Shown here: positions 1-58,031 of the stretch, one piece after another
How the letters are laid out: every line of letters starts with the position of its first letter
Position numbering within the stretch: position 1 is the first letter of the stretch
Virus record (IMG/VR): IMGVR_UViG_3300018080_000104
Span: 131,454 to 195,453 of that record
DNA from: a virus
Lineage: Duplodnaviria > Heunggongvirae > Uroviricota > Caudoviricetes
Reading direction: 5' to 3' (one strand)
DNA: 64,000 nucleotides
Translations under genes and position numbers: made by a program
Notes under the pieces: model-generated
Database searches by the model: none
Told to the model about the DNA's origin: nothing
The model's input: the letters and a program-made list of their open reading frames with translations, nothing else

Positions 1-558
1 CTTGAAGGCCTCCTGGACGGTATCGCGAGTGATACCCCCGAAGATGGTTTCCCACTGGATCACGCCGCTGGCGGGTACAACAGTGTCGGCGCCGAGAAGA
101 GCCGTGTTGACCGCCGTGAGGAATTTGCTATCTTCCTCTGCTAGCATGTCCTTGATAGCATTATCTGACAGCACTTGGCGGATATCCATCTGCCAGGTGC
201 GGAGCTCCTCGATGTCCTTGACGAACCGGGGAGTGACAATGCGATCGAACTGGACGCGATAGCGCGGACCGCGGATGTACACGGAAATCGGCAATGTTGC
301 GAATGGAATGGAAATGGCGGCCGGGGAGCCTGGCTCCTTGTCAACGACAATGACAGGCTTGTCAGTGTCGACCTGGCGATCCAGTTCGTCGTTGGCGACC
401 TGGACGGCCGGGAGGATTTTCCGATAGAAGCCATCCTCGCGCACTCGCGTGCGGGTGAACTCGTTCACCGCGTCGAGCGCGTTTTTCACCATGCCCGGCG
501 TTTCCAGTTGCGAGTACAGATCCTCGTTGAGGACTTGTACACTTGCGGGGCTGGACAT
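1..558 (-). CDS. Major capsid protein, HK97-fold. 5'-complete; 3' end runs past the window start.
   Basis: Reverse-strand translation from ATG 558-556 gives MSSPASVQVLNEDLYSQLETPGMVKNALDAVNEF...PISVYIRGPRYRVQFDRIVTPRFVKDIEEL..., resembling phage HK97-type capsid proteins. Strong SD (caAGGAGGttatcaaATG). No stop before position 1. It lies downstream of a scaffold-like gene. Confidence 0.6.
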   Translation of the reverse strand, partial: MSSPASVQVLNEDLYSQLETPGMVKNALDAVNEFTRTRVREDGFYRKILPAVQVANDELDRQVDTDKPVIVVDKEPGSPAAISIPFATLPISVYIRGPRYRVQFDRIVTPRFVKDIEELRTWQMDIRQVLSDNAIKDMLAEEDSKFLTAVNTALLGADTVVPASGVIQWETIFGGITRDTVQEAFK

Positions 559-640
559 TTGATAACCTCCTTGCAAAGGTGTAAGTCCCGTTTCCGTGGG
601 ACATATTTAGTTACTAAACAAACGCGACCCTCTTTCGCCG

Positions 641-1237
641 TTAAGTCACGGCAGCGGGCAAGAAGTACGACCAAAACGTCAGCGTTTCCACGCCATGCGC
701 GTTGGTTCCGCGGGGGCCGACAGCAGCGTCGACAACACCCAGGCCTACAGACTGGTTGTCGGCGTTAACGTGCGTCGAGCACACGCCACAGATCCAGTCG
801 ACATACTGCGTAGCGCCGTTTTCGAGGATTCCGTTGGCGTCCGCAGTGAGCAAATCGTTCACCGCGTATGTCAACTCGTCATCGAACTCGGTGGTTTGCA
901 GCTCGAAGCCGCCGGTGGCGACCAGGCCATGCATTACGCCAGTGGGCGAAATGCCGATCCAGTGGACGGTACTAGTCGTGGGACTCGTCCCGTTGTTGTA
1001 CACGTCCGCATCGTTTTTGCCTTCCCACAGGAAGATCGGCATCTGGTGGCCAGAACCGCTGAGCTCGAACTCACCGGCAGCATTCAAGTGGGCCACACGG
1101 CCCGCCGGCACTGCAGTGAGTCCCGTCAACAGATCGTTGTCCAGTTTGGCAGCTTTGTCGAGCGCATGGAGGGCACCAGGCCATCCTTTTACGGCATCGA
1201 GAGCCTGCTCAAACATTTGTGAAACAGCAGCTGGCAT
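641..1237 (-). CDS. Hypothetical head-associated protein, 198 aa.
   Basis: Internal ATG at 1237 is preceded by AAGGAGG + 6 nt. The longer track ORF (to 1432) has no SD. Lies between the scaffold-like gene and the MCP gene. Confidence 0.5.
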   Translation of the reverse strand: MPAAVSQMFEQALDAVKGWPGALHALDKAAKLDNDLLTGLTAVPAGRVAHLNAAGEFELSGSGHQMPIFLWEGKNDADVYNNGTSPTTSTVHWIGISPTGVMHGLVATGGFELQTTEFDDELTYAVNDLLTADANGILENGATQYVDWICGVCSTHVNADNQSVGLGVVDAAVGPRGTNAHGVETLTFWSYFLPAAVT

Positions 1238-1771: not shown

Positions 1772-2965
1772 TTATCCGTTTCGACGCATTAGATCCAGCA
1801 CATAGCTCCGCATGTAGTCGCGGGCCTGCTTTTGGGTCTTGTTTTGCGGCACTTCGACTCTGAACTTGCCGGTTCGCTTGTGCTGCTGCACAAGGCTGGC
1901 CATCTTAGCGCCCGTATCCGATGCTGCGGCGGCCAACTCAGCAGGATCAATGCCTAGCTCCAGGAGAGCCATGGCCAGCTGCTGAATGCCCTCGTCGCCG
2001 TCCATTCCAGCCAGCGCCTCTTCCGGCATGCCGGCCAGTTCGCCGCCGACTTCCGGCGGCATTGCTTCTCCGCCGCCGCCCATGGCAGCCAGAAGCTCTT
2101 CAGCGCCTTCCCCGCCACCAGCCTCCGCAAGTTCCTCGCCTTCGACGGGGAGTTCTTCACCGGCGTCAGCAGGAATTTCCTCGGAGCCATTGTCCTCGCC
2201 TTCGGCAACGCCGCCCAGGGGATCCTCTTCCTCTTCTGCAGCCTTTTGCAGTTCGGAGAGCTCCCATGCGAGGTGGTTGGCGACCAAATCAGCCTGGTGG
2301 TGTGCCACCTTGATTTGGTGTGCGATAACTGCAGCCGCCAGTTGATCGGGCATGATCTCTTCGGCTGCTTTGGCAAGACCAGCACCCGCAGCGGCCGCCT
2401 GTTCAGGCGTTACATCTGCTTGCGCTGGCGAAAAATGGCCGTTGGCAAGATCGGCTGTAATCTCGTTGCCAAGATCAGCAGCCATCTTCAACAGCTCGTC
2501 GTCTTTGGCGCCTGCCAGTTTTTCGGCAGAATACTTCTCGCCGAAACTGCCGTCGGCCGGGTGCGACGTGCCACCCATGTCGCCTTCTTGCTTGTCGCCC
2601 GTCGGCTTGCCTTTATAATCCTCCTCGGTCGAAGGATCTTCGCCCGTAGGCTTGGCCTTATCGACGCCTTGGCCCAGCTGGGTGTCGTCGGTAGAAGGCA
2701 CATTACTTGGCGTTGCATCGGGCTGCTGATCGACGGAATCGGGAATTTCCTCTTTGACGATTTTAGTATTGTCGGCCGACTGCTCGCCTTCCGGCGCCGT
2801 CTCCAACTCATTGTCGTCACTCTTGGCAGAAGGATGATCTGACGGGCCTTCGTATCCGCCCGGATCCTTCATGCCCTGCTTTTCCCGCATTGCCGCCGTC
2901 TTTTCTTGCTGGATCTCCGCGACAAGGCTGGAGACGCGATCAAAAAACAGACCTTGGTCACTCAT
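1772..2965 (-). CDS. Highly acidic low-complexity protein (rich in E, D, G, A). Scaffolding-protein candidate.
   Basis: 397 aa with long runs of EE, GE and AE. SD GGAGGaagacaATG. Positioned between the protease-like gene and the MCP gene. Confidence 0.5.
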   Translation of the reverse strand: MSDQGLFFDRVSSLVAEIQQEKTAAMREKQGMKDPGGYEGPSDHPSAKSDDNELETAPEGEQSADNTKIVKEEIPDSVDQQPDATPSNVPSTDDTQLGQGVDKAKPTGEDPSTEEDYKGKPTGDKQEGDMGGTSHPADGSFGEKYSAEKLAGAKDDELLKMAADLGNEITADLANGHFSPAQADVTPEQAAAAGAGLAKAAEEIMPDQLAAAVIAHQIKVAHHQADLVANHLAWELSELQKAAEEEEDPLGGVAEGEDNGSEEIPADAGEELPVEGEELAEAGGGEGAEELLAAMGGGGEAMPPEVGGELAGMPEEALAGMDGDEGIQQLAMALLELGIDPAELAAAASDTGAKMASLVQQHKRTGKFRVEVPQNKTQKQARDYMRSYVLDLMRRNG

Positions 2966-3083: not shown

Positions 3084-5714
3084 TCATTGCTGCAGGAAAT
3101 TCGAACGCACGACCAGCTCATTTCGGAAATCCGAATCCGGCTGATCGGCCAAATGCTGCAGCAATCCTAGCTGATAAAGGGCGTATTCTTTGGCCAATTC
3201 GTCAGTTTTAGCGGCCGCGGCGACCTTTACCAGTTGCTGTCGTTGCTGGCATTGTTGCGGATTTCGCAATACTGCCAGTTGCAGCCTTTCTACGATCCTC
3301 GGGCGGTCTAATGACCACTCATTCGCGAATTTCATAGCCCAATGCCGCAATACTCGCGGCGCAGGGCCCTGTGGCAAATAAGGGTTCTGCCGCAGATTTT
3401 CTTCCATTCTGGGGTCTGCTGCCAGTCGATTATAGACTCCTGCCAGCCGCGGAGCAACTTTGGCGGCAACAGCCGCCGCCTTTTCCCGCGACTCTCCCGA
3501 CATAACGGCGATGAATGTCGACAGTGGCAGCATGCAACGCTCCCCAGCCAACGCTGTTACAATGTGCGCCAATTTATACTGGCCGGCATCTGAATCCCCC
3601 CTGGCGGGTTGCACGACGCTATCGAAAGCGCGATCGACGGGTGAAGGTGGAGCACTCTCCAGTTCGTCTTCCAGGCGAATCAGCTCTTGGGCAATTTTCA
3701 ACTGGCCGACAACCCTGGGATCTGACCAAGGCCCTTCGGTAAGCAGCCACAACGGAGGTGCAATACCCAACCGCTCGGCGATTGCGGCGCCTCCGATAGC
3801 TTCTCCGGTAGATATGCCGGCCGCCTTGCACATAGCATCCATCTCAGCCACTTTGCCCAGCGTAAATGCAATTCGGTCGGCGCGTCGGAACACTTTGCTG
3901 ATATCGAAGAAGGTCGGATCAGGATTGTCGGCATGCAACGTATGGCCGTCTTCGAATGTTTTGCCCATGTTATCCCGCAAGCCGCCATATTTCGTGCATG
4001 CATCCGGACCGCAATAATCGGCTCGCGTGCGTGCGTGGTTTCCACATCCGGAGCAGTTATGAACGGCAAAGCCGGCAATATATGTTTCATCTTGCGCTAC
4101 GGCCATGTTGAAGACGTCTGCTTCCTCGTATTCCTGTATAATTTGCTGGACAGGCAATAGCATATAGTCGTGCAACAAAAATGCTTTTGCATGCTGCTTT
4201 TTGGATGACGTAATATTGCGCGCTTTATAGCTGTACGTTGCAAGTCTTGCAACAGCCGTGCGCGAAATGAATACTACGTAGATATCTACAGGCTTATCGG
4301 AAAAGCCGTCGACTGTCGTTTCCTTATGTACAGTCGCGGGAATACCTAGTCCCCAAAAAAGTTTTTGGCAGTCGTCCGCAAGTTGTCTGGATACAGTACT
4401 AAATCGGCCGCGGCCGATATCATCGACATGACCGTCAGAATCTAGCCAACCTGCAAGTAACGCCAGCCGATCCTCTTCACACAAATCAAAAATTGCAGCG
4501 TTGCAGTGCTTTTTATGACTGCCAGTGCCAATCATTCGTTGGATGTCAGAGGCCAGGGGCACATTGTACAGGGTCACGCGCAGCGCCTTGCGATCCGCAC
4601 ATATAGAAGGTTTACGACCAAGTACGGCTGTCGCAGCATCCGTAATATATTGTAGACTAGGATCGTTGCCGCCTGCACTAATTGCAATACCCCGCGCATA
4701 TGGTGCGCCGTCTCGCTTGCGGCCGCGTTTTTGTATTAGCAAAAAGCCATCACCAGTATAACGACCAAGAAGATAAGCTTTAGAGGCGCCAACAACTTTT
4801 GTACCAGGCGATCGTACTGGATATGCTACATAGTCTCCGACGGTAACGTTGACAGCATTATACCATTGCAAATCTAACGAAACTTCCGTTTTGCACGTAA
4901 TGCAGGTCTTGCCATTGCGCACAGTATGTCGTCGTCTTTTATCGGCCGCAGAGCCATAGCATTGCCGTATATCAGCTTGCTTTAACACCCAAACAGGATG
5001 GTTATGTGTCATCGAAATTTGTTCAGGAATGCCAAATACATTAAATCGAACTACAGTGCCAGCGAACGGCCGACAAAATGTTCGGGATACTGTTTGCCAA
5101 TTCCCCTGCTGAGTACGAACGGTATTGCCAATTTGAATAGTTTCGATTGGTTGTAAACCATTTGCTGTTTCTATCAGCGAGCCGCTCAAAAGGCACACGT
5201 CGTGCGAGACCCGCGTGGCCATCGACACTTCGATGTCTTTTCCACGATTAAGCTGCTCCACCTCTTCATCGGCAACAAGCCCGCCATTGCGATCTGCGGC
5301 CTCTTTGGTTCCGTTGAGCGCTACAAGCAATTCGATGCGCCGCATCTTGTCATTGTAATCGGAAGCCTTGATGATACCGCGGCCTTTGGCGGGGTTTTTA
5401 TTGCAGTGGTCCCTGAACCACCTTGCATATTTTACAAACGTCGGATGATATTGCTTGCATACTACCTCACGGAAACCATCGCCGTTTCTATTCGGCCCGT
5501 ATCCCTCCGTAGATCCGAGCGCAATCAAATGTATAGGCACTTCGCCTGGTCCAAATTTGATGCTGGCGATCTTGTCGATGAACTGTACGCTGGCGCGTTT
5601 TACGAAATCATCCAAGTCGCTGCCGCGGAGCCCGCGGCTAGATACTTTGACTAGTTGGGCAACAGGCTCGCCGAGATCTTGCGAGCCGGGCGTAATGATT
5701 TTCGTAAAGGCCAT
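3084..5714 (-). CDS. Prohead-protease-like (HK97/S78-like) morphogenesis protein interrupted by an intein.
   Basis: N-extein carries WFRDH...KG and ...EVSMATRVSHDV, resembling the catalytic His and Ser blocks of phage prohead proteases. The intein follows at CLLSGSLIE..., then a roughly 320-aa C-terminal extension. Sits upstream of the scaffold and MCP genes. Confidence 0.5.
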   Translation of the reverse strand: MAFTKIITPGSQDLGEPVAQLVKVSSRGLRGSDLDDFVKRASVQFIDKIASIKFGPGEVPIHLIALGSTEGYGPNRNGDGFREVVCKQYHPTFVKYARWFRDHCNKNPAKGRGIIKASDYNDKMRRIELLVALNGTKEAADRNGGLVADEEVEQLNRGKDIEVSMATRVSHDVCLLSGSLIETANGLQPIETIQIGNTVRTQQGNWQTVSRTFCRPFAGTVVRFNVFGIPEQISMTHNHPVWVLKQADIRQCYGSAADKRRRHTVRNGKTCITCKTEVSLDLQWYNAVNVTVGDYVAYPVRSPGTKVVGASKAYLLGRYTGDGFLLIQKRGRKRDGAPYARGIAISAGGNDPSLQYITDAATAVLGRKPSICADRKALRVTLYNVPLASDIQRMIGTGSHKKHCNAAIFDLCEEDRLALLAGWLDSDGHVDDIGRGRFSTVSRQLADDCQKLFWGLGIPATVHKETTVDGFSDKPVDIYVVFISRTAVARLATYSYKARNITSSKKQHAKAFLLHDYMLLPVQQIIQEYEEADVFNMAVAQDETYIAGFAVHNCSGCGNHARTRADYCGPDACTKYGGLRDNMGKTFEDGHTLHADNPDPTFFDISKVFRRADRIAFTLGKVAEMDAMCKAAGISTGEAIGGAAIAERLGIAPPLWLLTEGPWSDPRVVGQLKIAQELIRLEDELESAPPSPVDRAFDSVVQPARGDSDAGQYKLAHIVTALAGERCMLPLSTFIAVMSGESREKAAAVAAKVAPRLAGVYNRLAADPRMEENLRQNPYLPQGPAPRVLRHWAMKFANEWSLDRPRIVERLQLAVLRNPQQCQQRQQLVKVAAAAKTDELAKEYALYQLGLLQHLADQPDSDFRNELVVRSNFLQQ
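4056..5195 (-). mobile_element. Intein of 380 aa (residues 174-553 of the host ORF) with a LAGLIDADG homing endonuclease.
   Basis: Splice-junction motifs: N-terminal C-L-L-S-G, C-terminal ...AGFAVHN followed by Cys +1 (CSGCGN). Two LAGLIDADG blocks (LLGRYTGDGFLL and LLAGWLDSDGHV). Confidence 0.85.
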
Positions 5715-9908: not shown

Positions 9909-12281
9909 CTAAACTTCGGGCGAATCCAGGTCAATGTCGGCGCCTTCGCCGATATAGGGCTCGATTGCCTTTTGTTTCAGTTTGAGCGTCAGTTTGCCGA
10001 GGTTCTCGAATGAATTCCGCAATGCGTCTTCTAATTCCGGCAACTCGCCGGCGTCGAAACGGTCTTCGTAGTTGTCATGGTGCCAATAGAAATTGAATAG
10101 CAGCCGGCCGATCGAGTCGAGCCCCTTGACCAGATTAGGCAAATATTGGTCAATGAGCGTATCGTCGCGAGTGCCTTCAAGCAGATTGGATAGTACCGAA
10201 GTATCCAGGATTTCTTGCTGGCCAGATTGGGCCGCCTGCATGATCTGATTCATCATTTCGGGCTCTAGCGGCGCTGCGTAATCGGGTCTCCGGTTTGTCG
10301 TCTGCAGTCCCGGTATCGGTACTTCTTCTTCCAAATACGGCTGCAACGGTATCGAAGAGCCGAAAATGGTATCCTGAGCAGTCTGGTCCTGCCCCGGAAT
10401 TGTCGGCGCGTACGAACCTCCTTGCTGCAAAGCGTAAGGCACATTTTCTTGTCCGTATGGCTGTGCATACTTAATTCGATATGTTGCGCCTTTGTGCAAT
10501 TGTGATTCTGCCAAAATGTGCCGGGCTTGCTTTTCACGCAAACCGTAATCGCGTATCAGCGAAATCAATGCTGCGCGACTGGGCAATCGCGTGCCGTTAA
10601 GCCATGCTTCGCTGCCCGTGTTGATGACTTTCAGCTCGGCAGATGCTTTATAAATGCCAAGCTGCAAATCGATATGTGCGCCAGGTCGCAATGCTGGCGG
10701 ATCGCTGTTCTCTTCGTCGATGGGCCTAGGCGGCGGATACTCGTCGTTTTTCTTCGGCTTTCGCAGCCGCACCATTTTGGTGCCGGGCGGCACAAATAGT
10801 GTCTTCAGCCGATTGATGAATTTTGGACCCTTGATGCGATTTAGCGAAATCAGGTTGCAACAACTGTCGCTTTCGTAATCGTAAAATGATTCACGATTAG
10901 CTATCGGCGGCAAATAGTCAGGACGGTTATCGCCGTAACCGCCTTTCCACCATATCCGGTAACACTTCTCTTCGCCTTCTGCCGGCATGGTCTCCTTGAC
11001 TTCGAACGGGCACGTACCTTCGCCGCGCGGAGTTAGCAGAACATAAACGCTGCCTTGCTCTAGGCTATTGGCTTCGGGCAATCCTTCCCAGTAGTCCGCA
11101 TATTCTGCATCTGCCAGCTTATCCACGGCAAACACGTTGGCTGGATGCGTTTGCGTGTAAGCTTTATTGTCCTTATCGCCAATACGGACAAGCACGCAGC
11201 CAGGCTTTCTTCCGCGATCTCCTTGCGGAGTAGCAATGAACAAACATCTGTCGAATGAATCCGGCTTGGTCAGCACCTCGTAGATACCCGTAGCGTCAGG
11301 GTTTTGCATCGCCAGCGGCGGCTGGACGTTGAGTACCTGCGACGTGTTCTTCTCTTCGCGCATGTCGCGGATATAAACACCATCGCGTTTCAGCTCTGCC
11401 GCCTGCTTATCGGTCAGTTCTGCAGGTCGTTCACCGTCATAGATGTAGATTTGCAGATCGTCGTTCGGGTGATACGGCTTCTCGTCTTGCCAAATACTGC
11501 CACGGATGACCTTGGCCTGCTTTTGGCGGCGCAATTCGATCGGCTGGGCAGAGGCAATTGTGCGAGCGGTAGCAATCGCTGTTTTCAGCATTTCGGTGCC
11601 ATAGCACTGCGCAAATTTTTCAGCCAGTTTGGGTCTTGCATCGATCATCTGCAGTATGCGATGGGCCGCCCAAGCACTTGATTTGACAAGTTCGGGTATT
11701 GTCGGTTTAACTGGGACGTACCTGCCTTTAGCGTACACGAGTCCCGGCAATCCGGCTTGGAGCCATTCTGGCTGTGCCGAAGCATATTTGCCGGGAGAGT
11801 CACGGAAATCTTGCATTGCCGGCCGTGTGGCGCCTAGCGTATTCAGACTATCGCCGGTAATATCGCCAAGAACTACAGGCTTGCGGTTGAGAACGTAGTT
11901 AATCCACCCTTCTTCCATCGGCACGAACGTGTCGCTCTCCTTCAACCAGAGTAGTTCGTGTCCTTTGAGTTCTCCATTGATAAAGAAGACCGGGGCATAC
12001 ATCATCTGCGGACCGATTTTGAAGCCGAACACACCGACGGCTTTGTCGTTGTCCTCGTTTTTCTCGAGCAGCTGGAATCCGAGCTCATACGGAATCAGCT
12101 GCGGCGCACGTTCACGGAGAAACGAATGTGCCAGATTCGATAACGCCATTTCGAATGGTACATTTTCCGCTGCTATAGCGGCTCGCTTGATGAACGCAGA
12201 CCGCTTGCATTGCTGTGCAAGCTTTGTCCAGTGGGCGATTTCGGCACTGACCTGCCTAGACGGAGCAAGAGATGTGCTCAT
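9909..12281 (-). CDS. Large hypothetical protein, 790 aa. Possibly a virion or portal-region protein.
   Basis: Long ORF. SD AAGGAAGttgaataATG. Sits between the RNAP and head genes. No recognised motifs. Confidence 0.5.
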   Translation of the reverse strand: MSTSLAPSRQVSAEIAHWTKLAQQCKRSAFIKRAAIAAENVPFEMALSNLAHSFLRERAPQLIPYELGFQLLEKNEDNDKAVGVFGFKIGPQMMYAPVFFINGELKGHELLWLKESDTFVPMEEGWINYVLNRKPVVLGDITGDSLNTLGATRPAMQDFRDSPGKYASAQPEWLQAGLPGLVYAKGRYVPVKPTIPELVKSSAWAAHRILQMIDARPKLAEKFAQCYGTEMLKTAIATARTIASAQPIELRRQKQAKVIRGSIWQDEKPYHPNDDLQIYIYDGERPAELTDKQAAELKRDGVYIRDMREEKNTSQVLNVQPPLAMQNPDATGIYEVLTKPDSFDRCLFIATPQGDRGRKPGCVLVRIGDKDNKAYTQTHPANVFAVDKLADAEYADYWEGLPEANSLEQGSVYVLLTPRGEGTCPFEVKETMPAEGEEKCYRIWWKGGYGDNRPDYLPPIANRESFYDYESDSCCNLISLNRIKGPKFINRLKTLFVPPGTKMVRLRKPKKNDEYPPPRPIDEENSDPPALRPGAHIDLQLGIYKASAELKVINTGSEAWLNGTRLPSRAALISLIRDYGLREKQARHILAESQLHKGATYRIKYAQPYGQENVPYALQQGGSYAPTIPGQDQTAQDTIFGSSIPLQPYLEEEVPIPGLQTTNRRPDYAAPLEPEMMNQIMQAAQSGQQEILDTSVLSNLLEGTRDDTLIDQYLPNLVKGLDSIGRLLFNFYWHHDNYEDRFDAGELPELEDALRNSFENLGKLTLKLKQKAIEPYIGEGADIDLDSPEV

Positions 12282-12399: not shown

Positions 12400-14274
12400 C
12401 TAACCCCCGGTGGGCTTTAACACATTTTGCGGCCATTCCGTGCCAAATGTTTTCCCGGCAACCAGCGCCGGAACAAACGACGTCGACGCCGTATCGGACA
12501 CGCCGCCGCTGTATACGGCACCCAATAAACTGCGTTTTTGGCCCGAACCAATAAACCGCGTTAGCCAATCGGGGTCATGGCTCACTGTTTCCATAGCCCG
12601 AACCATCTTTGGCTCGAATGGGGGTTTCTCTGCGTGGACGTCCAACGTCTTGACGCCGAAATTGTCAAGATCCGCCAACATTGACGGCTTAACCTGTGTA
12701 CCTATCGTATAGTGCAACACCGGCCGCTCAAGGTATTTACCCACCGCTTGCTTGGGTGATGCTGATATCGTCCCGTCCCGGGGCACCCAATCACGTTCGA
12801 GCCGACTGTAGGACACTAGATCGCCGGGCAAATTGTCGTCGGTTTCATCGAGAATCTCGACGTTGTCGATCAGTCCCCTTGCAATCAATTCGACGTTTCG
12901 CCTGTTGACCCCCATGCCAGCATCCCTGTAGGCTTGCGTGAACGCTTGCACGAAGTACCGCCTACCTTCGCCGATGCCTTTGTATTTGACGATTTCTGCC
13001 GGATTGGGAATGCCGTCCGAGAGGACATCGCCTGCTTCCACCGTATCGCCCTTTTTGACTGTGACATCAAATCCAGGCGACACGTAGTGACGTTCTTCGT
13101 TGACCCATACATATTTGCCTCCGGCCGGTGCGTCATCCATCTTGGTTATGTGACCATCTATTTTGGCGTGTGAAGCGCCCGCCTTAAACGTTTTCGGTAC
13201 CTGTATCAGTTGGTTCAATCCCTGAAAACCCGACACGGATTTTGCTTCACCCTTAACACCGCCAGAATGTTTGGCCGACAACTGCCCCTGTGTGAGTTTT
13301 TCGCCCAGCGCCTGGGCTGCGCCCAATCCTACAGCATCGCCAAGATTCGGCAACGTGCCTCGTTCACGAATGCCGACATCCCGCGCATACACACCGCCGC
13401 CATCAGGGCCTCCGACAATCGGAGAACGGACAAGTAATCGCTTAAAGCCGCGGTTATCAAGATCGGCAAGAATCTTCGGTGTCAGAATAGTATTACGATC
13501 GTAGCCACCGATCGGCGACGCCAGCAGTGCGCCTACATTATCAGTATCATCCGTTGCAACCGGCAGCCCAGCTACGCGCGTCTTGTCCGTTTTGTCGTCG
13601 TCTTCAGCCGTAACAAGCAGACGATGGGCAAGCTGATTAAGCTGTTTTGAAAAAAAGCCGCTATCGGCAGTAGAGAATTTTGTAGCGATAAGACCTTTCC
13701 GGGCGCCAAACGTGCCTGCCCAGTACTCGGCAGGGCTTAGCCCTTCGGAATAGCTCTTCTGGACTGGAAACGGAATGATATTATCGTGGTGATCCATGTA
13801 CAGCATATCGCCGCCGATCAGCCTATTCAAATACATAGGACTGCCTCTGGCGCCGGACTGTACTTGCATGGCCAGCGGATTGGACATTTCCGAAGTCTCT
13901 TCGATGACTTCCTTCTTCAGCCGTGCATGCTCTGCATCGGTCGCCTCGATGATTTTCTCAGCTTGATAATCCTGTGGCCAGTTCTTTGCCATTATGTCCT
14001 GCAAACGGCGTCGCAGCCTAATTCGCGATGCCAATACCGCTGGCGGCGGTTGCAAATGCTCTAAGCCAAAAGAATTACCGCCCGTGCTATATGCAACATC
14101 GCGACCAACATCACTCAGATATTTGGCAATTTCGCTGTATTTGTCCGGATGCTTCTCCGCCACTTCTGCCAACAACGCATTGATACCCTTACGATCGAGC
14201 GAACGATTATAGTTCCGCATATCGTTCGGCAGGCCGCTATTGATCAAAATTTGTCCGACAGTCGTCTTAAGCAT
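12400..14274 (-). CDS. RNA polymerase beta' subunit, C-terminal half (trigger-loop region through the C-terminus).
   Basis: GQILINSGLP resembles beta' region F. GARKGLIATKFSTADSGFFSKQL resembles beta' region G ([23 protein letters not shown]). C-terminal GDTVEAGDVL block present. Confidence 0.8.
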   Translation of the reverse strand: MLKTTVGQILINSGLPNDMRNYNRSLDRKGINALLAEVAEKHPDKYSEIAKYLSDVGRDVAYSTGGNSFGLEHLQPPPAVLASRIRLRRRLQDIMAKNWPQDYQAEKIIEATDAEHARLKKEVIEETSEMSNPLAMQVQSGARGSPMYLNRLIGGDMLYMDHHDNIIPFPVQKSYSEGLSPAEYWAGTFGARKGLIATKFSTADSGFFSKQLNQLAHRLLVTAEDDDKTDKTRVAGLPVATDDTDNVGALLASPIGGYDRNTILTPKILADLDNRGFKRLLVRSPIVGGPDGGGVYARDVGIRERGTLPNLGDAVGLGAAQALGEKLTQGQLSAKHSGGVKGEAKSVSGFQGLNQLIQVPKTFKAGASHAKIDGHITKMDDAPAGGKYVWVNEERHYVSPGFDVTVKKGDTVEAGDVLSDGIPNPAEIVKYKGIGEGRRYFVQAFTQAYRDAGMGVNRRNVELIARGLIDNVEILDETDDNLPGDLVSYSRLERDWVPRDGTISASPKQAVGKYLERPVLHYTIGTQVKPSMLADLDNFGVKTLDVHAEKPPFEPKMVRAMETVSHDPDWLTRFIGSGQKRSLLGAVYSGGVSDTASTSFVPALVAGKTFGTEWPQNVLKPTGG

Positions 14275-15351: not shown

Positions 15352-18300
15352 TTACGATTCCACAATCTCAACATGCTGTCCGACGCCTATTTCGCCGCGT
15401 CTGTAAGCATTGATAGCGTCCTGTTGTGTTCTGAACGTCCGAGTCGGTTTACCGTAATCTCGCTTGGCCGATGCTGCATAGATGCCGCCGACGTACTCGT
15501 TTGTCGGGGCATGTATTGGTTTGAATTCGCTGAGCGATAACAGGTTTTGCGACGGCATTAGCTTTGTTTTGGCCTCTTCGACGGCTTCATCGGAGCTGGG
15601 TACGTGAAACTGCATGGTATCGCCGTCAAAGTCGGCCCCGAAACCGCCCGTAATGAGTGGAGGAATTTCGAGCACTTGTGAAGACGTCAGTTGCGGCCAC
15701 GCTGCCAGTATACCGAATTTATGCAGTACCGGCGCCCGGGTAATTATCACCGGACGGGATGCCATTTCGGCCAGCAGCTCTCTTTTTGTCCTGTCAGTGC
15801 GGTCCTCGACTGCTCGGAGAGCCTGCAGCTTTGGCATACCTTTGCGAACCAGTCGCCGCACAAGAAACGGCTTGTATAGCGTCCATGCTTGTTTTTCCGG
15901 CAAGCCTACATGGTCCATATCGAGGTTCGGATCAGGCGAAATGGCCCCACGGCCGACCAAATCTACTGTCGACCCAAGCAATTTCCGCTGTACCATGCCA
16001 TGTTTGGGGCTCGATGCGAAAATTTGCTTCAAAATTCCCTTTACGTTGCATTCTCTGTTTTTTGGCGTGATCGGATTTCCCAGCCCCGTCACTGCTCGAA
16101 ATGCCTTATACAGTGCTAACCGCTCATCCGTAACGTCGTCGACTACCTCTTCCATGCTTTTCAGCGCCTTATTGGCGTCAAATAACTCTTTGTAGAGGTA
16201 GTTTGCGTCCGAAACCAGCGGTGTGCCGCTTTGCTGCATGACAGAAATGGGCCGAAAAATCGGCGGAAGCACTGGAACACGGCTCAAAAACCACTCTTTT
16301 GGGTGCTGTCCAAGCTTTTTAGCGCCTTGCAGGTACCGTAACCGCCGAATGGCCATGTCGCGGGCAGTTTTTCGGCCTAATTGCGCCTGATTTCTCGCTT
16401 GTTCGATCTCTTTATCGAGATTCATGCGGTCTAACGCGTTAAATAAGGCTTGCGGGCCCGTATTTTGTGTCTTATCCGCTGCCGGATCGTTGCCATACTG
16501 CTCTTTGCCGGCCAAAATAGCCTCATATTTGGCTTTGGTCAGCCCGAGAAGGTATCGAATCGGGTCTTCCATGACAGGATTTGGCATTTTTTCGTGGAGT
16601 TTGATGTAACTCCACCGTTTTCCGCCGTGCCCGCCAGTCATCGCTTCGTCAAAAAGCCCGCCACGGATCGGTGACAAGCGATCGACGCGCCAATCGACCG
16701 TATCTGCGTTCTTTAATTCCCTGTCGCCCGTCAGCGTCTTTGCATCTTTTTCCGTCATGGCCATAATGTTCAGCTTTGTGCCCTCTTTTACCGGATTTAT
16801 TCCGGCCGCACGCAGCGATTCAACAAATTTGGTGTAGACGAACGGTACTTCTGGCACCGGCGGCGAATATCCGCTCATGACTTGGCGCCAATAATCCGTA
16901 TTTTGTTGGCCGCGGATTAAACTAGAGTCGCGAATTGTGTTATAGGCCCCATGCGATAGTAGTGCATTCAGCTCAAGCATACCTACCCGCTTTGAACCTG
17001 TCGCGCCGCCCTTTGCCGGCGCGCCTTCGCTGGTATATGCGCCCGTTGCGCGGCCTTGGCTCTTCGCTTCTGCAGTGTGATGCAATTTCATCAGAAAGCG
17101 ATTGCCGGTTTGAATATTCTCGATGTTGCGCCCTGTATCTGGATCTTTGATAGTTTCAGTTGACGTCAAACCGTGTTTTTTCAATTCGGCCATCACCCAT
17201 TTACTTAGGCTTTGTTCCGTATCGAAATCCGGAAGCTTATAAGGCTGCCCCGTCTTCTCGACAATCTTTCCGAGCGCCGATTCGAGAATCTGTGCCGGAT
17301 TTCCTCGCGAAATGATGCCGAGCGGATTCAGCAGGACTTCGAATGGCCTGCCTTGTTGGTCTTGCGGCATGCGATTATCGGGAACAATTTTGGCTACGAT
17401 TCCTTTATCGCCCATGCGGCCGCTCATTTTATCTCCGACTTCCATCGGCTGCGCAGCTTTTACGATAACGTTGACGCCATTTTTTCCTTTGTACACATCT
17501 GTCACAGTGCCGTCAGCATGATGATCCCAAGTGACAGAAGCGTCAGCGTACGCGCGTTGTCGCCGGCCGATTTTCGGCCCTGTCCGACGTTCTCTTATCG
17601 CAAGGATCAACGGGTCATCGGCATGCACTGTCTCGCCGACCTTGATTACACCGTCGCTGTCGTACTTCTGGAGCAAATCCTTCGGATACTTGGCTGGAAA
17701 ACTGGCTATGAATGCGTTCTTACTGACTTTGGTCGCGTCGTCGAACTCCAGATTATTCTGATACATATGCTCGCTAGTTGCGCGCTTTGCAAAAGACTCG
17801 GAAACAACTATTGCGTCTTCGTAGTTGTATCCCTTGTACGGAATATAAGCCACTCGGGCATTCTTTCCGAGTGCTGTTGTACCTTGTTTATCTGTGAAGT
17901 TCGATGTTGCGAGTAATTGTCCGGGCTTAACTCTGTCACCAACGGCCACAACGGGTGTATTGTGCAAAAACGTTTTTCTGTTGTACGGCAACTGCTCGTA
18001 GATCTCGATATTATGCACTTTGCGATCTGTTCCACGGACCTTGATGTTCGATCCGGTAATATCGATGACCGTGCCTGCTACTTGACTGCGAACGGCACCC
18101 ATTTGTTCGCCGTACTTATCCTCGAACGATCTGTTTTCGCCAGGAATGCCGGCTTGTACAAACGGCGCTTCAGGATCTACTAGCGGCAGTGCCTGCGTCG
18201 CCATGCGGGATGCCATGGCTACTCGTTGCGGAAATGCGGCAGCTTTTAGCGGCACCAAATTAGCGAGCGGACCAAAAGCTTCTGTCATGTGTTTCAGCTG

Positions 18301-19728
18301 ATAATCAACTTTGTCTCGCGGAGCCATGACATGCTTTCCGCGTGAAATTGCACGTATGTTTGCCCGCCCGCTTTCCAGTTCGCCGGGAAATGCAACGGTA
18401 CTTTCTGCAAGTTGTTGTGGGGATCGCCAGACAGTTTTGCCGGTTCGCGGTTCTATATATTGTGCATATAGTGTGCCGTCTTTACCGTATCGTGTATTGA
18501 TAGCTACGCGGCCATCCACGCCAATGCGTGCGCTTTCCGGTGAATGCACAGGATCGATAAAGCCGAGGTGCGATGGCTGTACCGATCTGGCTTCGTCGGG
18601 AACAGCGTCCTGGGACGGAATCCCGCCTTCGCCCATCCGTGTGATACGATGTTGCTGATCGTACAATTCTGCCGGATTGATCTCTTCGAGTGCTCCTGCT
18701 AGTCCCGTGTCGAGCAATGCGCCTCGCATGCTTTTTTCGAATATGCTTGGCTGCATCCGCTGTAGAGATCCCGATACGGCTGCTTTCCAAAACATTCGGC
18801 GAACGTCTCCACTGCCCTTCCGGATGCGTTCTGCAAAAATATCTTCGGGGCCGAGTGTTCGCTGGAACATCAACGCGTCGCGATCGTCTGGAACGTCTTC
18901 ACCGCGATACACCCGCAGTAACTTAGCCGTAGCGGCCAGCATCGTGTCCAAGTCAACTTTATCGTACGGCTTACCTAACGTCCGTTTGGTCACTTCCGGA
19001 TCCAGCGTCATTTGCTGAAAAGCTTCTCGAAGTGCTTCTTCCTGTGTTCCAGCCGGCTTTTTATCCCGATAGAATTTGGCATACAGCTTTTTCAGGACTG
19101 CTGGGTTGTCCTTGCGCATATTGGCAGCAAATAATTCATTGCCCCAGGCCTCACGCAACTGTGTATCCGTAGCGCCCATCATTTTCATTGCGCTGATCAG
19201 CGGCAGTTTCGCCTGTGCGATAGCCAACCTAAATATGCCTGTCTCGGGATCTAATAGGTATCGATGCGCCCGCCCCTTAGCCACGTTGATGTGCGATTCC
19301 AGCTCTCCAGACTCCTTTTCGCGGGTGAAAATGCCCGGACGCAGCCGCATTTGCCGGGACATGCCGTAGTCGCTGCCGCGAAAAATAAACGTTCCGCGGG
19401 GAGTCATCCACGGTACAGTGGCTAGCGTTGCCCGCCGCGTATCGACTGGCGCATTTGTGGCTGTATCCAGCAGCTGCCATGTTCCTCGTAATCGGCGGCC
19501 AAGCGTTTTACCAGCTAACAGCGCTTCCTTTTCGTCTGCCCTTGTATACGATTCAGGGCCCTCATAGCCCACGTCTTTCAGCGCTAGTGTATATCGCTGG
19601 CCCACAATAGGCTCGAAGCGGTTGGCTGCATCCAATACGCTGGAGAATATGGCATCCCTAGTGACAGCCGGATTTCCAAATTCTCGCGCATCCGGCATGC
19701 CATCAAGCTGCATAAGAGGGATTGTCAT
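15352..19728 (-). CDS. RNA polymerase beta subunit fused in frame to the N-terminal half of beta' (includes the ADFDGD catalytic loop).
   Basis: Beta blocks: SHLGFIDPVHSPESARIG, NYEDAIVVSESFAKR, GSKRVGMLELNALLSHGAY. Beta' blocks: VPVLPPIFRPI, LLGSTVDLVGRGAISPDPNLDMDHVGLP, TRAPVLHKFGILAAWPQL...GGFGADFDGDTMQFHVP. Start chosen at ATG 19728 (MTIPLMQL); the track ORF extends to 19800. Confidence 0.85.
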   Translation of the reverse strand: MTIPLMQLDGMPDAREFGNPAVTRDAIFSSVLDAANRFEPIVGQRYTLALKDVGYEGPESYTRADEKEALLAGKTLGRRLRGTWQLLDTATNAPVDTRRATLATVPWMTPRGTFIFRGSDYGMSRQMRLRPGIFTREKESGELESHINVAKGRAHRYLLDPETGIFRLAIAQAKLPLISAMKMMGATDTQLREAWGNELFAANMRKDNPAVLKKLYAKFYRDKKPAGTQEEALREAFQQMTLDPEVTKRTLGKPYDKVDLDTMLAATAKLLRVYRGEDVPDDRDALMFQRTLGPEDIFAERIRKGSGDVRRMFWKAAVSGSLQRMQPSIFEKSMRGALLDTGLAGALEEINPAELYDQQHRITRMGEGGIPSQDAVPDEARSVQPSHLGFIDPVHSPESARIGVDGRVAINTRYGKDGTLYAQYIEPRTGKTVWRSPQQLAESTVAFPGELESGRANIRAISRGKHVMAPRDKVDYQLKHMTEAFGPLANLVPLKAAAFPQRVAMASRMATQALPLVDPEAPFVQAGIPGENRSFEDKYGEQMGAVRSQVAGTVIDITGSNIKVRGTDRKVHNIEIYEQLPYNRKTFLHNTPVVAVGDRVKPGQLLATSNFTDKQGTTALGKNARVAYIPYKGYNYEDAIVVSESFAKRATSEHMYQNNLEFDDATKVSKNAFIASFPAKYPKDLLQKYDSDGVIKVGETVHADDPLILAIRERRTGPKIGRRQRAYADASVTWDHHADGTVTDVYKGKNGVNVIVKAAQPMEVGDKMSGRMGDKGIVAKIVPDNRMPQDQQGRPFEVLLNPLGIISRGNPAQILESALGKIVEKTGQPYKLPDFDTEQSLSKWVMAELKKHGLTSTETIKDPDTGRNIENIQTGNRFLMKLHHTAEAKSQGRATGAYTSEGAPAKGGATGSKRVGMLELNALLSHGAYNTIRDSSLIRGQQNTDYWRQVMSGYSPPVPEVPFVYTKFVESLRAAGINPVKEGTKLNIMAMTEKDAKTLTGDRELKNADTVDWRVDRLSPIRGGLFDEAMTGGHGGKRWSYIKLHEKMPNPVMEDPIRYLLGLTKAKYEAILAGKEQYGNDPAADKTQNTGPQALFNALDRMNLDKEIEQARNQAQLGRKTARDMAIRRLRYLQGAKKLGQHPKEWFLSRVPVLPPIFRPISVMQQSGTPLVSDANYLYKELFDANKALKSMEEVVDDVTDERLALYKAFRAVTGLGNPITPKNRECNVKGILKQIFASSPKHGMVQRKLLGSTVDLVGRGAISPDPNLDMDHVGLPEKQAWTLYKPFLVRRLVRKGMPKLQALRAVEDRTDRTKRELLAEMASRPVIITRAPVLHKFGILAAWPQLTSSQVLEIPPLITGGFGADFDGDTMQFHVPSSDEAVEEAKTKLMPSQNLLSLSEFKPIHAPTNEYVGGIYAASAKRDYGKPTRTFRTQQDAINAYRRGEIGVGQHVEIVES

Positions 19729-34179: not shown

Positions 34180-37014
34180 CTACATCTTAGTGGGTTGCCC
34201 CGGTTTCTCCAAGACAACGTTCGCCGCTTTTGATTGGAATAGCTGCGATGCGACAGCCCGCAGCTGCGAGCCTTCGGCCAGCCAATCCTTAAACTGATCT
34301 AGTGTCAACCCCGTAATATTGCCAAAGCCTGCCCAGCCTTTCTCGTAATTGGCCATGTAGGCAGCTTTGGCGGCCTCCTTAGTGTCAAATCCGAGCATTA
34401 CTTTGTGCTCGTCGAACCGTTTGGTCTGCGGGTCGACCTGATCGACCACGAAAATGAGCTCAGTATCCGGATTGGGCCCAAGGAAAACATCGACATGGTC
34501 TCCGTCCTTATCTTCGGTTCGGCGGATGTAGCCGTAGTGGTTCTTCATCGCGATCGACCACTTTTTGCCGTCCCGCGAAACACCGGATCGCGTACTGCCT
34601 TTGGCGTTCTCGATAGTGACGTCGAAGCCGTGCATGCGCACATGCCCCTTGCGGTAATTGCCGGCTTCGGCCTGCGCTTCCGTGGGTTCTTGTACTTTCC
34701 GCGATTCGGCGGCGATCAACTGCGGCAGTGTCATTGCTTCCTTGACTCGCCCGCTTCGTTTCATGTCGGACCAGCCGCAGACCATGCAATGCGGATGCAG
34801 ATATTCGTCGTCGACGTGCGGCGCCCAGTATGTTTTGTGGCCGCACTCGCCGCAGATCATATCATCGTCGGACGCCGCCTTACTCTCTTGCAGCGGATAA
34901 TCCTCGTGCAGTGCGTGCAAAGCTGGCGCCCTCAATGCTCCTGACGGGAACGCTCCCTGACTCTTGATGCGGGCCATACGACCGATAAAGGCATCAGGGT
35001 CTGTTTGAAGCTCACGACGCAGTTCGTCCGACAGTCCAGTGCCGACACGTCCAATTGTCGGCCCATCCGGTCCTCGCGAATAAGTAAAACCACCTGCTCC
35101 GGTATCGCGGTACTTACCTTCACCGGGAAAGACTCCTGTAATCCATACATCGTGTTCGTCTAGTAGTTTGATTTTTTTCGGTTTGCCCGGTGGATCGTGA
35201 ATCACGATCCCTTCTTCGGTAAGCGGGTGGCGGCCTTCTGCAATTTCCCGCCAAAGCGATTTAGCTCCTTCCGGAGTTGTTGCCTCCTCCGGCGCGTGGA
35301 AGACATCTTCCGGCAGGTGAGACAAAACCTTGCGCAACATGGCCAGCCGCTCGGCATAGGGAGTCTCCTTGGCTATCGGTTCTTTTCCGAGTTGTTGAAT
35401 GTCATAGAGCATTTGCTTCAGCTTGACTCGCTGGTCTCGCTGCTTGGCAATGCTGTTGGCAACAGTGGCGTTGAGGATTCCTCCGAGTTCTTGCGGCGGA
35501 ATAGTTAGGCGTCCTGTTTGTGCCGGAGTGCGTGTGCCGTAGATTTCTCCCTTCAAAACTGTACCGACGAGCTCTTTTGGTATTTGTAGTTCAGGGCGTC
35601 CGTGGAGTATTCGCTCCGTGTGAACTAGCGGCCGCCCTGTCTCTTTGGCCACCCGATACGACATGATTTCGACGCCGTTTTCGAGTAGACGCGTAAGGCT
35701 TGCGGCCCCGTCGATTTTAGCCTGTACGGATGCGCCTGGCTTCAATTTAGCCAGCACGTCTTCGACCTGCTCTTGCGGAATCTTGGTATAGTGTACCTTA
35801 TTGTACGGTGTAACTTCCACCGGCGTTGTATTGACCAGCAGCCACGCTTTATCCTTGAAGCTGCGCGGCTTGATCAGCGCAAAGCGTTCGGGATGCCGCT
35901 GTCCGGCCATTGTGAAGCTGATCTTATCCGGTGTAGCCTTGGTGATAAGGATCTTTCCCTTCCGATGGGTTCGCACTGTGCCAGCACCGTAGCCGCCTCT
36001 AAGCGCGCCTTCGAACGGCATGTATCCGTGGTGATGAAGCGGCTGCCGGTAGATCGAAATTTTCTTTTTGGCATCGGGAAGCTCCTTTCTGGTGGCCCAA
36101 CTGAAGGCCCCCATAGCAGGATCGCCAAACCGGATATCGAAATGTTCGCCGGCACGCCGTGCATTGTGTTTCTGTATGACGAAATCCAGCAGCTGCCCGG
36201 CGCGGACTTTAGAAAGATCTCCCATGTTTTTGATGTCGGGAATTCCGGGAATTGCTACAGCACATTTCATAAGACCCAACAGATTAGCCCAGTCATTATC
36301 ACCGCCATGAGGATCAGCATCGGCCAACGGACCTCCCGCCAAGTCTCGTCCCAACGCTCCGTCTGTTCCCGCCGCTTTTGTATGCGGCCGTAGTAGTATC
36401 TGGCTAGCAGCCTTCGCTTGACCAATTCGCCCAAGGTAGGCGCTTCCTGTCGCAGGCGCTCCAGTATATTGTCCCGAGACGCCCTGTCGTAGTTCGCTAT
36501 TGTCTTTGCTATTCGTTCCGCTTCCTCTCGCGTTTCCGTGCGCGTTAGATATCGTCGCCCCATTGCCTTTCCCCTTGTCATTCTGGTAAAGGATGCCCTT
36601 ACGCCGTACCGCAACAGTAATGTGAAAAGGATATTTTGGCTGCGGAGGCAAGCCATACGTCCTGCGAAATCGCTCTAATTCGACGCTCTTGACCGGAATG
36701 ATCCACGCCTTAGACATCTCTTCCCAGCCGGCCGGCTCGATAATCTTCATTTTACCGACTATGTAATGAAAATCACGCCCTCTTTCCGAAACAGCTCGAG
36801 CTCCGCCTATCTGCGCAAGTTCTTCGGGACGGACAACAGAGATATGGGCATTCAGCTGCCCAGTCTCGTTTGTGGGCAGTTCGATTCCCGGCTCGTCGAG
36901 CGCGTCGAAGTAACCGCGTACTATGGCATTCGGCACGGCGAGCAATAACCAGCCGGATTTGGAGAAGTACAATTTCCCCACTTGCTGTGAATCTGTCGCG
37001 ACTTTTTCATTCAT
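34180..37014 (-). CDS. Multidomain nucleic-acid end-healing and sealing protein: 2H phosphoesterase + LigD-type 3'-phosphoesterase + ATP-dependent ligase + Zn ribbon + inorganic-pyrophosphatase-like domain.
   Basis: Two HxT/S motifs (AHISVV, FHITVA). PE block FVIQKHNARRAGEHFDIRFGD. Ligase motif I KIDGAAS, motif IV EGIVIH, motif V KIKLLDEHDVWITGV. Zn ribbon CGECGH...CMVCGW. PPase-like NHYGYIRRTEDKDGDHVDVFLGP...NYEKGW. Its start overlaps the stop of the PAS gene (ATGAATGA). Confidence 0.7.
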   Translation of the reverse strand: MNEKVATDSQQVGKLYFSKSGWLLLAVPNAIVRGYFDALDEPGIELPTNETGQLNAHISVVRPEELAQIGGARAVSERGRDFHYIVGKMKIIEPAGWEEMSKAWIIPVKSVELERFRRTYGLPPQPKYPFHITVAVRRKGILYQNDKGKGNGATISNAHGNARGSGTNSKDNSELRQGVSGQYTGAPATGSAYLGRIGQAKAASQILLRPHTKAAGTDGALGRDLAGGPLADADPHGGDNDWANLLGLMKCAVAIPGIPDIKNMGDLSKVRAGQLLDFVIQKHNARRAGEHFDIRFGDPAMGAFSWATRKELPDAKKKISIYRQPLHHHGYMPFEGALRGGYGAGTVRTHRKGKILITKATPDKISFTMAGQRHPERFALIKPRSFKDKAWLLVNTTPVEVTPYNKVHYTKIPQEQVEDVLAKLKPGASVQAKIDGAASLTRLLENGVEIMSYRVAKETGRPLVHTERILHGRPELQIPKELVGTVLKGEIYGTRTPAQTGRLTIPPQELGGILNATVANSIAKQRDQRVKLKQMLYDIQQLGKEPIAKETPYAERLAMLRKVLSHLPEDVFHAPEEATTPEGAKSLWREIAEGRHPLTEEGIVIHDPPGKPKKIKLLDEHDVWITGVFPGEGKYRDTGAGGFTYSRGPDGPTIGRVGTGLSDELRRELQTDPDAFIGRMARIKSQGAFPSGALRAPALHALHEDYPLQESKAASDDDMICGECGHKTYWAPHVDDEYLHPHCMVCGWSDMKRSGRVKEAMTLPQLIAAESRKVQEPTEAQAEAGNYRKGHVRMHGFDVTIENAKGSTRSGVSRDGKKWSIAMKNHYGYIRRTEDKDGDHVDVFLGPNPDTELIFVVDQVDPQTKRFDEHKVMLGFDTKEAAKAAYMANYEKGWAGFGNITGLTLDQFKDWLAEGSQLRAVASQLFQSKAANVVLEKPGQPTKM

Positions 37015-53329: not shown

Positions 53330-53681
53330 CTTTTCTCCTTTTTCCTGTTAGTGAAAAACTCGCTCAGAAAAAACTTGCTTTACTTTGCTGTGTTTTTGCT
53401 GTGCTGCACAGTGCTGAGCGCTGCTACGCGCCGCTGCGCTGAACTATGCTAGGCCTAGCTTCGATTTTATTCTATGGTTTTGGCGGTAAAGTATGCTTTG
53501 CATTGCACTGCATTGCATTGCAGCGCTGCGCACGGCTCTGCCTAGCCCGGCTACGATTTCATTCTATGGTTTTGGCGGTAAAGTGTGCTTTGCTTTGCAT
53601 CGCTATGCTTTGCACGGCGTTGCAGAGCTGCACAAGGCTATGCACAGCACAGCTCAGCAGCTGATTCAACTGAATTCTACT

Positions 53682-53918
53682 CTATTGACGTCTTGGCAGC
53701 AACTTTGCCAAAAACGACAAAACGTTAGTACTGAATGTAAGCAGCTTTTTGCCGATACCGCCAGCATCGTTGGCATTGTTGTCGGCCAGAAGGCGCCCCA
53801 GGTGCTTCAGGCGATCCAATTCCCAAAGGTATTCCCATTCAGCAAACCTGTCGTACATGATCGGTGAAATACCGGGTAATTCGCATTGATAGGTTTTATT
53901 GTACGACCCCGTTGGCAT
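53682..53918 (-). pseudogene. Decayed N-terminal paralog of the 52655..53329 gene, embedded in the repeat array.
   Basis: KTYQCELPGISPIMYDRFAE and GIGKKLLTFSTNVLSFLAKL match KTYRCELSGISPLMFDRFAG and GIGKKLFIPNINILSFLAKQ. The same SD context is present, but ATG is changed to ATA with an indel. Truncated at 78 aa. Confidence 0.6.
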
Positions 53919-54913: not shown

Positions 54914-55099
54914 TTAGGTGTCTGAGATTCGCCGAACTAATTGATCGAGGCTGGTCGCGTGATTCACGAGTCGTCCAATCGCCTTCTTGACAGCCTCGGC
55001 CGATAGACCACTTTCCTCGACGGCTTCGCTACGGAGAAACGTGTAGCGACCACTAGATTGTCGGTCGTCGATCCACTTTTCCAGGGTTGCAGCTGCCAT
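54914..55099 (-). CDS. 61-aa ORF on a unique island inside the array.
   Basis: SD GGAGAcggtgaaATG. Protein MAAATLEKWIDDRQSSGRYTFLRSEAVEESGLSAEAVKKAIGRLVNHATSLDQLVRRISDT. Confidence 0.35.
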   Translation of the reverse strand: MAAATLEKWIDDRQSSGRYTFLRSEAVEESGLSAEAVKKAIGRLVNHATSLDQLVRRISDT

Positions 55100-57622: not shown

Positions 57623-58031
57623 CACTACTCTCCTTCTTGATAACGACGAGGACACTGCCTCTTGGATGATCGCGGCCGAGCCTCGCCCTGTCACGATTTT
57701 GTTCTGCTGTTCTTGGTAGTAAAGTGTGCTTTGCTTTGCGGTGCTGCGCCGGGCTGTGCAGTGCTCCGCATCGCTGAGCACGGCCACGCCGCGATTATGT
57801 TCTGTTGGTCTTAGTGTAAAGTGTGCTTTGCTTTGCTGGGCTAAGCGCCGCTACACCGGGCTCCGCTGGACTTTGCTTGGCCCCGCTAGGATTATGTTCT
57901 ATTGGCCTCGGCAGTAAAGTGTGCTTTGCTGTGCTTTGCTGGGCCCAGCTGGGCTATGCAGTGCTGTGCCTTGCGTTGCCGCGCTCCGATTATGCTCTGT
58001 TGGTCTGGAAAAGAATTGAAGCACAAAAGGC

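Follow-up and report, generated by a model that had tools for sequence, protein, structure and literature searches.

Among the closest described systems, PI-SceI (the yeast VMA1 intein), PI-PfuI and TliVMA each consist of a Hint domain into which a LAGLIDADG endonuclease with two motifs is inserted. They share a Cys at the first intein position (Cys1), a TxxH motif, a terminal His-Asn and a Cys as first residue after the intein (Cys+1), and their type hosts are an ATPase, a polymerase or a ribonucleotide reductase. In phages, a survey of mycobacteriophage inteins (Kelley et al. 2016, PMC5050341) gave terminase, portal, helicase and methylase, among others, as hosts, emphasized nucleic-acid-binding proteins and contained no capsid protease. 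Across the literature that we searched, no prohead or capsid-maturation protease is reported to contain an intein, and papers naming both an intein and such a protease put the intein in other genes. Here we describe a class 1 LAGLIDADG intein in a 64,000-nucleotide stretch of viral DNA (the window; IMG/VR record IMGVR_UViG_3300018080_000104, positions 131,454 to 195,453). The source is a jumbo phage, as homologous contigs reach 220-227 kb, and the gene that the intein interrupts probably encodes the prohead protease.

For the host protein, the nearest described systems are T4 gp21 (MEROPS S77, PDB 5JBL) and herpesvirus assemblin (S21), both of MEROPS clan SH. The host protein is like them in fold, and its NRN motif, His and Ser follow one another as do NRNKR (residues 51-55), His85 and Ser140 in gp21, with a His-Ser spacing of 61 residues compared to 55. 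Unlike gp21, it has an insertion with four cysteines (Cys4 cluster) and, at 496 amino acids (aa), a 215-aa C-terminal domain. Its sequence and profiles show no significant similarity to gp21 or assemblin, and it lies outside Pfam.

RESULTS

A canonical intein in an uninterrupted reading frame

The element at positions 4056-5195 of the window is a canonical class 1 LAGLIDADG intein, and this call is secure. The original prediction, made from the letters and translations of the window, had placed an intein here, with CLLSG (Cys1) at one junction, FAVHN followed by Cys+1 at the other, and two LAGLIDADG motifs. Its bounds are exact (precursor residues 174-553, minus strand), both motifs were found (Table 1), and the junctions are confirmed by the open reading frame (ORF) together with intein-less homologues that align without gaps. 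The intein lies in frame inside an unbroken 876-aa ORF, whose N terminus, MAFTKIITPGS, agrees with those of homologues in alignment. Cys1, Cys+1, TxxH and the C-terminal His-Asn define it as class 1, and both LAGLIDADG motifs end in Asp-Gly with their acidic residues present, as in LAGLIDADG homing endonucleases. Among 13 related inteins, residues T63, H66, H379 and N380 show no or almost no variation, and the window intein shares blocks A, B, F and G, as well as both LAGLIDADG motifs with their acidic residues, with 42 related inteins of the same protease family. The G+C content is 46.9% in the intein versus 53-56% in the exteins.

Removal of the intein leaves a 496-aa protein with 641 homologues in a word-index search, nearly all of 480-500 aa, the best intein-less one being 74% identical over 100% of the length. 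Alignment of the spliced protein with P0001 and other homologues is gap-free over the junction, showing a precise, in-frame insertion. The same is seen in DNA: locus L003, an empty allele, has ...CACGACGTT/TGTTCAGGATGTGG... at the junction (its empty-site DNA is also given as ...GTCAGCCACGACGTT/TGTTCAGGATGTGGCAAC...), and the window reads ...CACGACGTG/intein/TGCTCCGGATGTGG..., so that the insertion is precise relative to L003. A metagenome contig from the Joint Genome Institute (JGI; sample 3300017987) is 99.9% identical to the window over 8.6 kb, has one 876-aa gene called and carries an identical intein (0 of 1140 nucleotides differing).

Domain searches, which had been proposed as a check for Hint, Hom_end and LAGLIDADG domains, upheld the last of these. 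In Pfam the ORF matches LAGLIDADG_3 above the gathering threshold (E 2.5e-9; 37.7 bits against a cut-off of 22.5), but Hint_2 falls just under its threshold (26.8 against 28.4 bits), PT-HINT and Intein_splicing are below their cut-offs, and the Hom_end match is weak. NCBIfam matches of the ORF are confined to the intein portions of intein-containing models. The Hint fold is apparent from an AlphaFold2 (AF2) model of the intein, built from an alignment of 12 related inteins (predicted local distance difference test [pLDDT] 85.8, predicted template modeling score [pTM] 0.85). The top 16 Foldseek matches of this model in the PDB are all inteins (PI-SceI, TliVMA, PhoVMA, PI-PfuI and PI-TkoII), the best at E 2e-17 (PI-SceI) to 3e-15, and are followed by I-DmoI-type LAGLIDADG enzymes, with matches to I-DmoI and I-Tsp061I. 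Despite this shared architecture, the window intein is only 12-17% identical to PI-SceI, PI-PfuI and TliVMA and differs from them in its putative host, a capsid protease, in a Cys-rich loop in the N-terminal splicing half, and in the Asn and Glu of block F. The last feature counts against our reading, as many inteins have Asp and His there; being common to the intein's relatives, it need not impair splicing.

No second related intein was found elsewhere in the 64-kb window. A word-index search gave just ~24% identical inteins in C5 methyltransferases, and to conclude from it that the intein has no close relatives would be wrong, because an exhaustive search later found P0244, P0252 and P0363, which the word index had missed.

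Fold, position and conserved residues of the host protein

We conclude that the 876-aa ORF is probably the intein-split precursor of a jumbo-phage prohead protease, from a divergent branch of the assemblin/T4 gp21/HK97 fold (clan SH). An AF2 model of the spliced extein (74-sequence alignment, pLDDT 85.8) has an N-terminal alpha/beta domain (residues ~13-232), a disordered linker (233-279) and a helical C-terminal domain (280-496), the last of which may have a scaffold-like role. A Foldseek comparison to viral models matches it with gp19 of phage G and with numerous entries that carry the names 'prohead (serine) protease' or 'capsid maturation protease', and it has the assemblin-like fold of clan SH capsid-maturation proteases. 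The gene is also where such a protease is expected: gene order in the window, in Salmonella phage Arash and in phage G places it in the head module, between portal and major capsid protein (MCP).

Conservation was counted in 256 family members with inteins removed. Residues conserved in at least 97% include N75, R76, N77, D79, H103, N105, S164, M165, D172, C174, C177, C188, C193, D224, S226, A232, D233 and R234. His103 and Ser164 are invariant, with His first, and Cys174 is invariant in 256 of 256 members, intein or not. The four invariant cysteines form a CxxC-x10-C-x4-C pattern inserted after the Ser strand, and weak zinc-ribbon or zinc-binding Pfam matches cover this region in several members; the cluster probably binds zinc. 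The invariant His103 and Ser164, the Foldseek matches to annotated prohead proteases and the head-module position sustain the original description of the protein as prohead-protease-like. That description had cited the blocks EVSMATRVSHDV and WFRDH...KG, which are present and contain Ser164 and His103, respectively, as signs of the HK97-type (S78) proteases. The resemblance holds for clan and fold, and the order of blocks is that of HK97 gp4-type proteases, but it does not extend to sequence membership of Peptidase_S78, whose hidden Markov model gave no match. We take the late strand of the host, FFD(I/E)ISxV..(P/G)AD, to resemble the 'E-V-S-L-V..PA' strand of S78 proteins.

Several results weigh against the assignment as a protease. 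Pfam searches with the spliced extein and with the Arash and phage G homologues match no protease family, and none of 74 family members matches one at E up to 10, Peptidase_S78 and Peptidase_S77/U9 (PF03420) included. An NCBIfam search of the extein likewise finds no protease family, and sequence searches of the PDB, with the single sequence and with a profile, find no match to it. Profile comparison by hhalign to T4 gp21 (alone, with 120 close homologues, or with 39 more diverse homologues from IMG/VR) is not significant, with probability below 2%. We infer the equivalence of His103 with T4 His85 and of Ser164 with T4 Ser140 from order, spacing, invariance and a low-scoring, non-significant alternative hhalign alignment that pairs NRNGD with NRNKR and His103 with His85. 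Finally, the Arash homologue (gp222) is annotated only as a 'structural protein.'

In PHROGs, the extein matches only entries of 'unknown function' and no named protease family. The top hhalign hit, VSSRGL (window 5628-5645, minus strand, residues 24-29), is an exact six-residue match to the catalytic-Ser motif of T4 gp21; we rejected it as chance because its serines are not conserved in the family, its probability is 1.7% and it lies far from Ser164. A passage in Iyer et al. is consistent with the protease family.

Inteins at four sites in the protease family

At E up to 1e-3, an exhaustive profile search of metagenomes retrieved at least 3,518 members of the family. Among the 150 best cluster representatives, which our intein survey covered, 42 (about 28%) are intein bearing, being long and matching the profile in two or three pieces. 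The original remark that inteins in phage head-maturation proteases are uncommon therefore fits the literature searched but not this family. Mapping of the breaks places 43 inteins at four sites (Table 1), and the site of the window intein, site d, is the rarest. Its inteins are those of P0252, P0363 and P0244, the last being the cluster to which the window protein itself belongs (identical at 874 of 876 aa). All 43 inteins have Cys1, and 41 of them end in (H/S)N, the other two, in P0257 and P0281, ending in KN. One protease, P0275 (1,297 aa), has two inteins, at sites a and c, and mini-inteins of 135-216 aa are present at sites b and c. Mini-inteins without an endonuclease, of 135-191 aa, were noted in several homologues (P0118, P0328, P0345 and P0346). 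All stages of intein invasion and decay are thus represented in the family.

Site d inteins are 43-46% identical to each other and 21-33% identical to inteins of sites a, b and c over the full length (pairwise BLAST, E down to 1e-50). This suggests that one intein lineage spread between sites within the protease gene, in a comparison to outside inteins that was not exhaustive. There is a parallel in the large-terminase inteins of mycobacteriophages (PMC5050341), which also occupy several sites in a confined, conserved region of a phage morphogenesis gene, as full-length and mini-inteins; here, in contrast, the host is a putative protease, and inteins of different sites are detectably related.

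Inteins typically sit beside invariant motifs, and each of the four sites adjoins one. Because every site does so, NRNGD, His103, Ser164 and the Cys4 cluster are independently marked as the functional core. The residue following site c, Cys167, is present in 88% of members, and the window protein has Thr there. Cys104, which follows site b, is found in all six alleles that carry a site b intein and in 5 of 250 alleles without one, the window protein among them. More speculatively, the Cys104 of the window protein may be the scar of a precisely lost site b intein.

Genomic context

Gene order in the window leads from a phage RNA polymerase (RNAP) through the head genes to the MCP gene, which runs off the window start (Table 1). 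Three genes of unassigned function (278, 452 and 453 aa) lie between the portal-position gene and the intein-bearing gene. The acidic protein that follows has no Pfam or PHROG match and is a putative scaffold; the gene order around it is kept in loci L003 and L082. A protein of 133-135 aa separates it from the 198-aa protein, which by position alone would be a decoration protein. The MCP gene is 308 aa in L082. Searches of cultured-phage records returned homologues of the protease from Salmonella phage Arash (gp222), Bacillus phage G (gp19) and three Vibrio phages only. Two of these records were examined, those of Arash and phage G, and in both the homologue has the portal (or portal-position) gene to one side and the MCP gene to the other.

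TABLE 1 Features of the window and intein sites of the protease family
Feature	Position	Strand	Remarks
Precursor ORF (N-extein, intein, C-extein)	3084..5714	-	876 aa; ATG at 5712-5714, AGGAAA ~9 nt upstream
N-extein	5196..5714	-	aa 1-173, first part of protease-fold domain
N-extein NRNGD	5478-5492	-	
N-extein His103	5406-5408	-	
N-extein Cys104	5403-5405	-	rare
N-extein Ser164	5223-5225	-	
N-extein Asp172	5199-5201	-	
Class 1 intein with LAGLIDADG homing endonuclease	4056..5195	-	380 aa, precursor aa 174-553 (CLLSG...FAVHN)
Intein Cys1	5193-5195	-	CLLSG
Intein block B	4998-5009	-	THNH (TxxH), intein aa 63-66
Intein Cys-rich loop	4893-4961	-	23 aa, low model confidence
Intein LAGLIDADG motif 1	4743-4772	-	LLGRYTGDGF
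Intein LAGLIDADG motif 2	4428-4460	-	LLAGWLDSDGH
Intein block F	4074-4115	-	
Intein block G	4056-4073	-	GFAVHN; ...AVHN is intein aa 377-380
C-extein	3084..4055	-	aa 554-876 and stop codon
Cys+1	4053-4055	-	CSGCGN; first residue of invariant Cys4 cluster CSGCGNHARTRADYCGPDAC (3996-4055)
Conserved C-extein strand FFDISKVFRRADRI	3870-3911	-	after Cys4 cluster; then disordered linker
Helical C-terminal domain of C-extein	about 3087-3737	-	
Fused RNAP beta/beta' gene	15352-19728	-	upstream end of gene order
RNAP beta' C-terminal part	12400-14274	-	
790-aa protein, portal position	9909..12281	-	both ends homologous to Arash gp218, annotated 'structural protein'
397-aa protein, scaffold position	1772..2965	-	very acidic, low complexity; directly after protease gene
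198-aa protein	641..1237	-	between scaffold-like and capsid genes
MCP gene, 5' part	2..604	-	runs off window start; 38% identity, E 2e-31, to Salmonella phage Arash MCP
Intein site a (spliced numbering)	G73 / (C or S)74-NRNGD		11 inteins
Intein site b (spliced numbering)	H103 / C104		6 inteins
Intein site c (spliced numbering)	S164-M-A166 / C167		23 inteins
Intein site d (spliced numbering)	V173 / C174		3 inteins; site of the window intein, rarest

The polymerase adjoining the head module is multisubunit, with an unusual split point. In a 1,458-aa ORF, RNAP beta (with Rpb2 domains 3 and 6) is joined to an N-terminal portion of beta' (with Rpb1 domains 1 and 2), and a separate 624-aa ORF after it encodes the C-terminal part of beta' (Rpb1 domain 5). 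In phage Arash, an RNAP beta gene likewise lies upstream of the head genes.

Species-representative genomes gave 15 protease matches (loci L083-L097), all on contigs assigned to metagenome-assembled 'bacterial' genomes of many different phyla. These contigs, several of them 130-200 kb long, most likely come from jumbo phages and were mis-binned into such assemblies. Three of them (L092-L094) match the protease up to residue 166 only, which suggests site c inteins.

Elsewhere in the window, at ~53,400-58,020, is a noncoding array of ~4.6 kb with about 30-45 copies of an 88-103-nt unit. In each unit, a conserved core of ~40 nt (CGATTATGTTCTGTTGGTCTTGGTAGTAAAGTGTGCTTTGC) precedes 50-60 nt of degenerate NNGCN pentamers with 5-nt periodicity. 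The array contains spurious ORFs only, and tRNA and Rfam scans of the window, the array included, were empty. An origin or iteron field, an array for a DNA-binding protein, and small-RNA or promoter units are candidate functions. A 944-aa protein (34180-37014, minus strand) combines a 2H phosphoesterase, a LigD-type 3'-phosphoesterase and an 'InPase' domain (E 6e-59) and looks like a fusion for RNA/DNA end repair or nucleotide processing.

DISCUSSION

The sequence of the precursor suggests how the intein and its host would act. The intein breaks the putative catalytic domain nine residues past Ser164, directly before Cys174 of the Cys4 cluster. In the standard four-step class 1 pathway, an N-S acyl shift at Cys1 would be followed by trans-thioesterification to Cys+1 and by cyclization of Asn380 with the help of His379, and splicing would join ...SHDV to CSGCGN... 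to give the 496-aa protease. During coinfection, the LAGLIDADG endonuclease would cut intein-less alleles at DV/CSGC, and repair would copy the intein in, the event known as homing. The precursor should be inactive, because the insertion comes between the Ser strand and two later elements, the Cys4 cluster and the last conserved strand (FFDISxV..AD), and capsid maturation would then require efficient splicing. Splicing, endonuclease activity and protease activity are predictions, and it is reasonable to expect that the last depends on the first.

Other explanations of the locus differ in what they change, the host or the intein. The host could have a protease-like fold and yet be a noncatalytic structural or scaffolding protein, a pseudo-protease, in which case the intein would sit in a structural gene. 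The label of the Arash homologue, the lack of a sequence family match and the scaffold-like look of the large helical C-terminal domain and disordered linker all lean that way. We nevertheless regard this as unlikely, as all 256 members have His103 and Ser164, the His-then-Ser order and spacing are typical of clan SH, four independent intein sites cluster on His, Ser and neighboring invariant motifs, the head module showed no other candidate for a protease, and presence in virions is compatible with catalysis. The intein, for its part, could be degenerate, nonsplicing or with a dead endonuclease, a crippled allele in a defective or dead-end genome. Its block F departs from the commonest consensus, its Hint_2 score falls just short and its 23-aa Cys-rich loop is modeled with low confidence. 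Set against these are intact nucleophiles, TxxH, His-Asn and LAGLIDADG acidic residues in an unbroken ORF, and the identical intein on an independent metagenome contig. The site d relatives P0252 and P0363 (43-46% identity) retain the same blocks, and purifying selection is therefore indicated, making decay a very improbable account.

A further question is whether the intein is more than a selfish element. Its splicing could be conditional on redox state or zinc and co-opted to delay the protease until prohead assembly, making the intein regulatory. Zinc and disulfides modulate some inteins, Cys1 and Cys+1 flank the junction here, with Cys+1 belonging to the invariant CxxC...C....C cluster, and inteins are kept in about 28% of the sampled representatives. 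Most family members, however, do without an intein, and the varying sites and intein lineages and the mini-inteins look like selfish homing and decay rather than a fixed regulatory device, which leaves a regulatory intein improbable. We see no sign of regulation beyond selfish persistence, with a small possibility of conditional splicing given that a putative metal-ligand Cys is the +1 nucleophile. Equally, it is quite unlikely that several ideas hold jointly, namely, site hopping within the gene, a coupling of splicing, metal site and protease activation that would delay maturation in a redox- or zinc-sensitive manner, and a site b scar at Cys104. Our preferred interpretation remains that of a homing intein in a prohead protease.

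The element itself is an ordinary class 1 LAGLIDADG intein; its host and insertion sites are new. Relative to the mycobacteriophage survey and the literature searched, a capsid-maturation protease is a new kind of intein host. With Cys or Ser at +1 and four positions within a single small enzyme, these related inteins could be used to probe the effects of extein context on splicing, and they could help build a splicing-gated protease. For the phages, the four sites are natural markers of the functional residues NRNGD, His103, Ser164 and the Cys4 cluster in a family of at least 3,518 metagenome members for which Pfam, NCBIfam and the named PHROGs offer no annotation. Combined with the T4 gp21-like fold, the sites lead to a testable annotation of the missing head protease in a widespread group of jumbo phages, which are related to Salmonella phage Arash and, at a greater distance, to phage G.

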